From positions 84,376 through 148,375 of the forward strand of contig JBMORA010000017.1 of assembly GCA_049320885.1 (NCBI GenBank): a DNA stretch of 64,000 nucleotides. The letters run 5' to 3'. The stretch's first letter is position 1; each line of letters begins with the position of its first letter. Shown here in pieces: positions 1 through 2,358 of the stretch. The stretch comes from Thermodesulfobacteriota bacterium. Lineage in GTDB: Bacteria; Desulfobacterota; Desulfobacteria; Desulfobacterales; SURF-7. Under the pieces are notes generated by a model that saw only the letters and a program-made list of their open reading frames with translations, had not been told where the DNA came from and searched no databases. A program made the position numbers and the translations under genes.

Positions 1-8
1 ATCCGCTG

Positions 9-1577
9 TTGCTGCACCTTGCCCTGCTGATTGTTCTGGTCGTCGGGGCCCTTGTCGCGGCGACATTCTGGATCGGCAGGGAGCTCCGCGAAGAGGTGTT
101 CACCCGGTTTGTCACCGTTGCAACGGAACAGGCCCGCAAAGAATTCCATGCCTGCTTTTCGCCCATGACCGACACGCTGGCCCTGGTGCGGGGCTGGGGC
201 CGGGCCGGGGACCTGGATGTCACCGACACGGTCGCCTTGAACGCCCGATTCATGCCATTCCTGGAAATGCATACGGACCTGTCGGCGATTTTGCTGGCCC
301 GTTCGGACGGGGTCCTCTATTTCCTCCTGCACAACGGCGGCGAATGGCTTACGCGTTCCCAGACAGAGCCGCAGAACCCCGGCGCAGCCGTATGGCGCAG
401 ATGGAAAGGTCCCGGGGAAATCCTGGACGAGCGCCGGGCGGATGACGGCGTCGACCCCAGGCAGCGGCCCTGGTACCAGGGCGCTCTGGAGCAGGGGCAG
501 GGGGGCGGCATCTTCTGGACATCCCCTTATGTGTTTCAAACCCTGCGGCAGCCGGGCGTCACCCTGGCCGTCAGCTGGAATGACGGGCATCACACCTACG
601 TCGCCGCCTTTGACGTGCTGCTGGATCGGATTGCCGAAGCGGTGCGCACCGTGGGGCAGCGCCAGGAGGACAAGGTGTTTCTGGTGACCGACCGATGGAC
701 CATTTTCGATGCGTCGGGGCGGCCGGCTGCCGGAAAGCAACCCGCCCCCGTGGAAGCGTATTTCCATTCGCCGGCCACCTATCCTGCGCCGGGGGTCGCG
801 GCGGCGGTGGCTGCGTGGCAGCAGCGGGGCAGGCAGGCGGCCGCCGCGTTCCGCTACACCGCCCAAGGGGAGCCGTTCTGGGCCGGATTCCAGTCGCTGG
901 GAGGGCCGGGCCGCCTGTGGCTGGGCTGCTGCCTGCCGGAGCGCGCGCTTTCGGAAAGCATGGGAAGTCGCCGCGGGCCGTATTTCGTGGCGGTGGGTCT
1001 GATCCTGGCGGGCGCCGGAGCCGCGGCCTGGATGCTGGTCCGCCGCCATAGCCGCCGCCTGCAGCAGATGCCGGCCAGGCTCCTGGAGGGGGCCGACCCG
1101 GTCCAGGCCGCCCTGGAAGTGATTCGTTCCGGGGAAAGCGACACCGTTGAATTCAAATCCACCATGCGCATGAACCTGCATACCGGCAAGCCCGGCAAGG
1201 AAATGGAACTGGCCTGGCTGAAAACCGTGGCGGCGTTCCTGAATACCAGCGGCGGCATCCTGTTTTTCGGCGTCGGCGATGACGGCGCCGTCCTGGGCAT
1301 GGAAGCGGACGGATTCCCCAGCGGGGACAAATGCCGCCTGCATTTCGAGAACCTGATCAGCCAGCACATCGGCATGGAGCATGCCCGCTCCCTCCGATTC
1401 ACCATCCTGTCCATTGACGGAAAATCGGTCGGAGCGGTCGCCTGCGAACGCTCGGACTCCCCGGTTTTTCTGAAAACCTCCAAGGAGGAGGCTTTTTACA
1501 TCCGCTCCGGGCCGTCCAGCATTCAGCTGCCGGTCAGCAAGGTCCTGTCGTATTTGAAAAACCCTTCCAATTTTTGA
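9..1577 (+). CDS. Membrane protein: TM - periplasmic dCache-like domain - TM - Schlafen/AlbA_2 domain (true start may lie upstream of the window)
   Basis: N-terminal hydrophobic helix; Cache motifs DPRQRPWY and WTSPY; second TM (YFVAVGLILAGAGAAAWMLV); C-terminal GESDTVEFKS...AAFLNTSGGILFFGVGDDG...FYIRSG typical of AlbA_2. The frame stays open to the window edge. Confidence 0.85.
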   Translation: MLHLALLIVLVVGALVAATFWIGRELREEVFTRFVTVATEQARKEFHACFSPMTDTLALVRGWGRAGDLDVTDTVALNARFMPFLEMHTDLSAILLARSDGVLYFLLHNGGEWLTRSQTEPQNPGAAVWRRWKGPGEILDERRADDGVDPRQRPWYQGALEQGQGGGIFWTSPYVFQTLRQPGVTLAVSWNDGHHTYVAAFDVLLDRIAEAVRTVGQRQEDKVFLVTDRWTIFDASGRPAAGKQPAPVEAYFHSPATYPAPGVAAAVAAWQQRGRQAAAAFRYTAQGEPFWAGFQSLGGPGRLWLGCCLPERALSESMGSRRGPYFVAVGLILAGAGAAAWMLVRRHSRRLQQMPARLLEGADPVQAALEVIRSGESDTVEFKSTMRMNLHTGKPGKEMELAWLKTVAAFLNTSGGILFFGVGDDGAVLGMEADGFPSGDKCRLHFENLISQHIGMEHARSLRFTILSIDGKSVGAVACERSDSPVFLKTSKEEAFYIRSGPSSIQLPVSKVLSYLKNPSNF

Positions 1578-1896
1578 TAATGGCAATGACTTCTCTGATA
1601 TAGGCGCATTCGCATTCAGCGGGGCATGATCGCAGCTCATCTTGGTACAGGCAGTATCCCGGGCATTTTTCCGTATGGGTTGCTTTCACCTGGAAAATCG
1701 GACCATCATAGAGGTCAACGAATTCCGAAGCGGGAATCGTCAACGTGCCTTTACAGGAATGGTTGAAGTAAAGAGAACCGGATTCGAGCCTTTTAAAATT
1801 CGCCTGATAACCGATTATGGTAATCATGGGATCACGTAAAAACGTATCACGGCAATCCCATTCAAACCCGCAATTGTTGCATTTTTTGAATGGCAT
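1534..1896 (-). CDS. Small Cys-rich hypothetical protein (probable metal-binding)
   Basis: 120 aa, 10 Cys (CNNC, HSC, CPGYC, CPAECEC); purine-rich SD (agaggaa) upstream; AT-richer than the flanks; 3' end overlaps the preceding gene by 44 nt. Confidence 0.7.
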   Translation of the reverse strand: MPFKKCNNCGFEWDCRDTFLRDPMITIIGYQANFKRLESGSLYFNHSCKGTLTIPASEFVDLYDGPIFQVKATHTEKCPGYCLYQDELRSCPAECECAYIREVIAIIKNWKGFSNTTGPC

Positions 1897-1950: not shown

Positions 1951-2358
1951 CTATGGCAGCATCGCCGGTTTCCGGTCGCTCCAGGGAAGGGCTCTCTCCA
2001 GCTGGGCCGCGAGCTGCAGGAGGGTGGCCTCGCCACCGAAACGGCCGAAGAATTGCACGCCGCAGGGCAGGCCGTCCGCGGTCCAGTGCAGGGGCACGGA
2101 CATGGCGGGCTGACCGGTGATGTTGGCGATCATGGTCAGGGGCATCTGGCCCTTCATGGTATTGTGCAGCATCTCCTCCAGAATGGCATAAGTGATTTTC
2201 CGGCTGCCTGTCAGAATGCTGCCCATCGGCGAAGAAAGGATCCTCATGGCCAGGCGGTCCGTCATTCCCGGTTTTTGGGAGCCCACCGTCACCGGCGGCC
2301 TTCCCAGGGTGGGGCAGAGGAGCATGTCGAAGCGTTCATACTCGGAAAAAGCGCCCAT
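1951..2358 (-). pseudogene. C-terminal fragment of an amidase-signature family protein
   Basis: FDMLLCPT...[26 protein letters not shown]...[14 protein letters not shown] is the amidase C-terminus. Only 135 aa; the GGSS signature/catalytic region is absent. Confidence 0.7.

Follow-up and report, generated by a model that had tools for sequence, protein, structure and literature searches.

A gene at the start of the 64,000-nucleotide stretch of Thermodesulfobacteriota DNA analysed here (the window; contig JBMORA010000017.1, positions 84,376 to 148,375) encodes a one-component receptor in which an extracytoplasmic double-Cache sensor is joined across the membrane to an intact Schlafen output domain, an assignment that is well supported by a family conserved over its full length and by invariant catalytic residues. 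The architecture has already been catalogued in print, and the receptor is a member of the published pSlfn12 group, real and widespread. What is new here is a matter of kinship: in comparisons of domain sequences, the nuclease domain appears to group with receiver-Schlafen regulators rather than with fusions to defence proteins, and another kind of receptor, SBP_bac_3-TM-Schlafen, appears on a different branch. We put at about one in two the probability that the receptor is a ligand-gated ribonuclease serving ordinary signalling.

Results

The sequence-only reading had begun the gene at position 9, but the codon there is an internal TTG and the frame is already open at the window edge (position 3). 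The likely start is an ATG lying 39 bases 5' of that TTG and 30 bases before the window (G000:C17, L001:11970), which gives a receptor of 535 aa rather than 522 aa; the 535-aa form is present in the protein collection, and all residue numbers below refer to it. Within the window the gene occupies 1..1577 of the plus strand, on which the receptor features given next also lie. Hydropathy places TM helix 1 at residues 13-31 (6..62; model helix 7-78) and TM helix 2 at residues 339-357 (984..1040). Between them lies the extracytoplasmic double-Cache sensor (residues 41-328; 90..953), and beyond TM2 a short helical linker (residues 358-380; 1041..1109), in which model helix 336-365 continues TM2, leads to the cytoplasmic Schlafen/AlbA_2 domain (about residues 381-535; 1110..1574). 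The linker is without a HAMP domain, for which Pfam gave no match in the receptor, and in 134 diverse homologs the spacing from TM2 to E389 is mostly 30-34 residues. The TM-Cache-TM-AlbA_2 order proposed from sequence is thus confirmed by Pfam, VIA, hydropathy and an AlphaFold model (mean pLDDT 90, pTM 0.66, from a 117-row alignment), which leaves no room for a further output domain beside the Schlafen. The receptor accordingly fits the definition of pSlfn12 (Cache.pSlfn), namely one or more Cache domains followed by pSlfn and nothing else. NCBIfam assigns it no family, promoter and terminator scans at the gene stayed at chance level, and a homodimer prediction for residues 326-535, with a score of 0.00, carries no weight either way; the Schlafen domain folded from its single sequence reached a pLDDT of 39 and was left out of the analysis.

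An assembly chimera or a one-off fusion is ruled out by the 115 of 119 listed homologs that are full-length, covering at least 90% of the query. One contig also spans the whole locus, though it is possibly the source of this DNA itself, while contigs from three other runs cover the gene in part and are uninformative on the fusion because none crosses the TM2 junction.

The C-terminal domain matches SLFN_AlbA_2 (PF04326), as had been predicted, at 70.1 bits against a cut-off of 25.3 (E 3e-19). Residues 362-535 of the model have the fold of a Schlafen C-lobe, with a VIA Z score of 13.6 to 3lmm (rmsd 3.5, 150 aligned) and further matches to SAMD9 (Z 13.1), SLFN11 (Z 10.2), SLFN5 and SLFN12. The motif Ex4(E/D)xK, as defined in PMC13056530, is satisfied by E389, E394 and K396, which with D437 make up the putative catalytic residues (1134..1280). 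All four are present in 134/134 diverse homologs (those of at least 470 aa among the 150 best matches in a set of 50%-identity representatives, 23-42% identical), in 120/120 of the closest homologs and in 77/77 genome loci. The residues singled out in the sequence-only reading, acidic ones in the Schlafen domain and a Val, an R-x-W, a Tyr and an Asp in the Cache domain, prove to be E389, E394 and D437, and V161, R166, W168, Y187 and D215. Among the 134 homologs, pairwise identity averages 51% for the Schlafen domain, 24% for the distal Cache module and 18% for the proximal one, and dN/dS, taken over 18 non-overlapping locus pairs from an alignment of the 77 of 81 loci that were long enough, is 0.059, 0.185 and 0.177, respectively. 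The Schlafen domain is therefore under strong purifying selection, and the sensor half is under selection as well. Because the catalytic residues are kept in all 134 diverse homologs and the core of the sensor motif in only 75, the nuclease half of the receptor is fixed and the sensor half has diversified.

The sensor itself matches Pfam dCache_1 (PF02743) with 27.6 bits (E 2.6e-6), under the cut-off of 45, so that its assignment relies on profile and structural evidence. The family profile matches PctA at E 1e-16, and residues 41-328 have a double-Cache fold with a VIA Z score of 19.0 to the dCache domain of PscC (rmsd 3.1, 229 aligned); dCache domains that bind amino acids are among the best structural matches. 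In related genomes, on a reading of the sequences, the same sensor subfamily is carried by kinases and by receptors of the HD and cyclase types. The dCache_1AA motif of PctA (Y121, R126, W128, Y144 and D173; PMC8915833) maps by alignment and conservation to V161, R166, W168, Y187 and D215, with PctA Y129 falling on Y169 (450..614). The R-W-Y-D core is found in 120/120 of the closest homologs and 74/77 genome loci and is lost in 59/134 diverse homologs. At the first position this copy has Val where 106/120 close homologs have Tyr; Val161 lies outside the set of Y, F, W and L that defines the Y121 position and to which most relatives keep, and Val is absent from the 27 bacterial variants listed in PMC8915833. 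Amino-acid binding by this particular copy is uncertain, since Val161 is not among the published variants.

Such a substitution might mean that the family is functional but that this copy is decaying or ligand-blind, sensing having been abolished by the Val, and the absence of the gene from close relatives would fit a copy on its way out. However, the frame is intact, every other motif and catalytic residue is kept, and the first position is naturally variable among the 77 intact loci (His, Leu, Glu, Phe, Gln and others), all of which makes decay a very improbable explanation.

The homolog search yielded 393 homologs among 8,000 candidates, with PF04326 in all 119 listed besides the query, and a genome scan yielded 338 relatives. 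The best 80 loci belong to Pseudomonadota (49), Thermodesulfobacteriota (13), Kiritimatiellota (5), Calditrichota (3), Myxococcota (3), Verrucomicrobiota (2), Bacteroidota (1) and Planctomycetota (1), with 3 unassigned. Near the host the distribution is patchy: full-length matches occur in 3/60 related genomes and in 0/17 genomes of the same family, and in a class sample the Cache type is present in at least 19/401 genomes, the host genome counted. One Cache-type homolog, L113:727-1950:+ (G310), has a frame of only 408 codons without the first TM helix and is possibly frameshifted.

Searches with the Schlafen part extended this picture beyond the receptors. Receiver fusions gave 477 matches among 651 candidates, and the same Schlafen subtype stands behind a range of further modules (85 matches among 436), among them receiver-SpoIIE, receiver-HD-GYP, HATPase-GNAT, TPR and PLD proteins. 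It is also found on the defence proteins BrxL and DUF262 and on type I RM subunits, which are its nearest non-signalling relatives and have the same invariant residues; clade-specific changes are few, W416 and H466 being examples. The 29 best non-self matches in the class sample comprised 18 Cache, 5 receiver, 1 multi-TM and 5 DUF262-like proteins. Among the 11 sequences fetched from its 18 weaker matches, five were receptors composed of SBP_bac_3, a TM helix and a C-terminal Schlafen domain, with both domains above the Pfam cut-off (L140:222-1724:-, L141:282-1751:+, L142:259-1647:-, L144:279-1742:+ and L150:392-1798:+).

An unrooted tree was built from 90 domains (152 columns), its non-Cache rows coming from one class sample and a receiver-type query. 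In it, the Cache, receiver, receiver-SpoIIE and receiver-HD-GYP fusions make up one side of a branch with support 99/98 (45/90 rows), and the same Cache/receiver branch has support 100/99 in another tree. The five SBP fusions group together (99/91) and are placed with two-TM and DUF262 rows (100/99). A first tree included two distant outgroup rows, whose very long branches gave no usable root, and both were omitted later. Because the Cache and SBP types lie on different branches, the tree suggests that a periplasmic small-molecule sensor was joined to a Schlafen domain at least twice, separately. The receiver-Schlafen regulators, represented by L091:1489-2445:- (G020) and by proteins P0265-P0388 and already catalogued under pSlfn18, include some that carry SpoIIE or HD-GYP together with a second receiver. 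Four proteins of about 650 aa (P0393, P0397, P0401 and P0405) join HATPase_c_2 of the anti-sigma kinase type to GNAT and Schlafen domains and fall outside the Cache/receiver branch, and among P0389-P0452 are BrxL proteins of about 670 aa whose C-terminal Schlafen domain keeps its motif intact.

That this clade of domains fills the usual slot of a signalling output, and shares a polypeptide with receiver-HD-GYP or receiver-SpoIIE modules, raises the question of whether the output is a tRNase at all. Its metal site could act instead on a small nucleotide, as a second-messenger phosphodiesterase or something similar would, or on a single particular RNA. Alternatively, the domain could serve nucleic-acid binding only; a non-toxic output of this kind would presumably suit a nutrient sensor better. 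However, the clade keeps the invariant residues of its defence-fused relatives, with few changes of its own, and the available parts of the cited literature describe no prokaryotic Schlafen with such an activity, so we consider a non-tRNase output unlikely.

Upstream of the receptor gene are genes for a DUF4136 lipoprotein, an alpha/beta hydrolase, an Lnb_N protein, a PD40 protein and a fatty acid cis/trans isomerase, and downstream follow a small convergent gene, an amidase fragment, FecR, OmpA and a CHASE2 hybrid kinase. The small gene (window 1534-1896, minus strand) is a 120-aa Cys-rich ORF that overlaps the receptor 3' end by 44 bases; it has no Pfam match and resembles clusters of hypothetical proteins, with a score of 0.97 but a low recognition value. 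The amidase fragment (window 1951-2358, minus strand) is a 135-aa ORF whose match to the amidase family is limited to that family's C-terminal end, and it is probably a gene remnant.

Across 81 loci, the survey of neighbours covered 848 genes in 506 clusters (ORFs of at least 90 aa, picked by composition), and no conserved partner gene is common to these loci across phyla. The commonest neighbours, a CCA-adding enzyme (16/81 loci), a bPH_2 membrane protein and TatD with a PLD-family gene, are bound to lineages. The gene for the CCA-adding-type tRNA nucleotidyltransferase is convergent and lies close downstream, mostly in related gammaproteobacteria; a link to tRNA repair is possible, and shared ancestry is the simpler explanation. 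Loci with this neighbour are L004-L013, L017, L025, L030, L043, L062, L070 and L076. PADLOC was applied to the 290 nearest of the 506 neighbour representatives, out to about 4 kb, and matched 14/146 at 1e-5 and 7/144 at 1e-15, mostly through generic domains, for example those of TatD, RuvB, OmpA and methyltransferases. By raw count, a single Cas3 among the 290 was unambiguously a defence gene, and none of the scanned neighbours at this locus had a match. A full-length PADLOC match, PDC-S08, is by Pfam a 5'-nucleotidase and was rejected as a defence gene, and Pfam found MazF, BrnT, PIN and TIR genes near four homologs. The receptor's neighbours are thus mostly housekeeping genes, not defence islands, and location beside defence genes, a trait of anti-phage pSlfn systems, was not found.

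These observations bear on a reading in which the receptor serves danger-sensing defence, its dCache domain detecting lysis products or an envelope cue and its Schlafen domain cutting tRNA, arresting growth and so limiting phage. All tested prokaryotic Schlafens in the available parts of PMC13056530, PMC13462974 and bioRxiv 10.64898/2026.05.29.728809 are anti-phage tRNases, the nearest non-signalling relatives of the domain are the BrxL, DUF262 and type I RM fusions, and the patchy occurrence among relatives is also compatible with a defence gene; all three points count against an ordinary signalling role, as do the loss of the motif core in 59/134 diverse homologs and the unlisted Val in this copy. 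Moreover, 8 of 18 pSlfn12 entries viewed in the supplement of PMC13056530 have a defence gene within 10 kb. However, six of these eight are from Brachyspira, and the Pseudodesulfovibrio entries among those viewed are without one in 8/8 cases; the defence score of the group is 0.36, as compared to 0.71 for pSlfn1 and 0.76 for pSlfn7 (PMC13056530). Within lineages the genes hold stable positions beside housekeeping genes, and the receptor protein had neither a PADLOC match nor a match in 50,697 phage records. We therefore judge a defence role improbable; in the earlier list of roles (dormancy, translational control or defence), defence becomes the weaker option on account of the housekeeping neighbours and the group score of 0.36.

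Discussion

The earlier statement that no characterised example of this fusion is known holds in that no study of it was found in the literature searched, which included few subscription papers, but not in the sense that the architecture is unrecorded, since it appears in two published supplements. In Supplementary Table 2 of Perez Taboada et al. (Nat Microbiol 2026; PMC13056530), pSlfn12 'Cache.pSlfn' is a group of 25/5,930 proteins, and one listed member, Desulfoluna limicola NZ_AP024488.1_4451, is our L059, 34% identical to the receptor over its full length (E 6e-113). The group is undercounted there, because two close homologs are filed as unannotated fusions; the SBP group is not named among the 55 groups of that table, a search of the file for it gave 0 matches, and it may likewise sit among the unannotated fusions. 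The main text contains 'cache', 'transmembrane' and 'periplasm' 0 times, and pSlfn12 is outside its tested systems. Dataset S2 of Gumerov et al. (PNAS 2022; PMC8915833) has a row 'AlbA_2,dCache_1' with 11 amino-acid-motif proteins, from which this copy departs at the first motif position; 'Alb' or 'Schlafen' occurs 0 times in the main text of that paper, and the fusion is not among its titrated domains. The main texts of PMC13462974 and bioRxiv 10.64898/2026.05.29.728809 are without 'cache', although the latter surveys 103,533 Schlafen architectures and may include Cache fusions.

The closest characterised systems share one half of the receptor each. Like RorSlfn5 (pSlfn5), CbCash and the SLFN-pAgo system RzAgo, it combines a single-lobe Schlafen bearing Ex4(E/D)xK with a fused sensor, and in those proteins, as far as the available parts of PMC13056530, PMC13462974 and bioRxiv 10.64898/2026.05.29.728809 describe them, tRNA is cut once the sensor has been triggered; in RzAgo two Schlafen domains pair, rebuilding the two-lobed active shape (bioRxiv 10.64898/2026.05.29.728809). 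The three are, however, soluble by their described domains and anti-phage, with a phage protein, cA4 or target DNA as trigger, whereas the receptor has its sensor across the membrane, its nuclease at the C-terminus and no defence context. With the dCache_1AA receptors PctA, CtaA, Mlp24 and Tlp3 it shares the sensor fold and four of the five motif positions, but its output is a Schlafen rather than an MCP, kinase, cyclase or phosphatase, and no HAMP linker intervenes. The groups pSlfn18 'CheY.pSlfn' and pSlfn7 'DUF262.pSlfn' have the same C-terminal Schlafen subtype, and the receiver fusions share the receptor's branch. The pSlfn7 group includes the anti-phage EcoSlfn7 (PMC13056530); DUF262 fusions fall outside the Cache/receiver branch, in a tree that does not contain EcoSlfn7 itself. 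In its logic alone the receptor resembles IRE1, a eukaryotic, kinase-coupled protein whose ribonuclease is switched by a sensor lying across the membrane from it, the domains of the two proteins being unrelated.

We envisage the receptor as a two-pass inner-membrane protein whose periplasmic dCache pocket would bind a small molecule, probably an amino acid in most close relatives. The resulting change would pass through TM2 and the short continuous helix, and the shift of that helix would re-align two single-lobe Schlafen domains within a receptor dimer (dCache receptors usually being dimers), thereby activating or silencing a metal-dependent ribonuclease. This enzyme would probably act on tRNA or some other structured RNA and so serve to tune translation to nutrient status rather than to mount abortive defence. 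We infer in this scheme the ligand, the dimer, the direction of the switch, the substrate and the physiological role, as well as RNA cleavage by the receptor and its gating by ligand. Cleavage of RNA is suggested because the tested single-lobe Schlafens with the same motif cut tRNA when their sensors are triggered, and ordinary signalling is suggested because the Schlafen branch is common to receiver regulators and clear defence genes are nearly absent among the neighbours scanned. Counting against this reading, in addition to the points raised above, is that broad tRNA cutting would be an odd response to a nutrient.

Bacterial membrane receptors ordinarily act through kinases, chemoreceptor domains, cyclases, phosphodiesterases or phosphatases. 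If the preferred reading of ligand-gated RNA cleavage is true, ribonucleases would be a new output class for such receptors, one that acts without a kinase, a second messenger or a transcription step, and prokaryotic Schlafens would have a non-immune role. More broadly, and only tentatively, Schlafens may have been adopted as a general everyday signalling output, in the dCache and receiver clade and again in the separate SBP_bac_3 lineage, such that extracellular amino-acid status would gate RNA cleavage directly. The authors of PMC13056530 leave a non-immune role open for the 30.4% of genes that, in their data, are without a defence neighbour.

The receptor family is directly testable, as its sensor is of a known type with predictable ligands, null mutations of its active site are known, and it occurs in cultured hosts (Desulfoluna, Desulfosarcina, Marichromatium and Thiocystis). 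The host of the present copy has four more PF04326 matches (G000:C35, C13, C61 and C9; L082, L083, L085 and L086), and the two of these that were scored are of a distant type, at about 40 bits as compared to about 200 for the receptor family.
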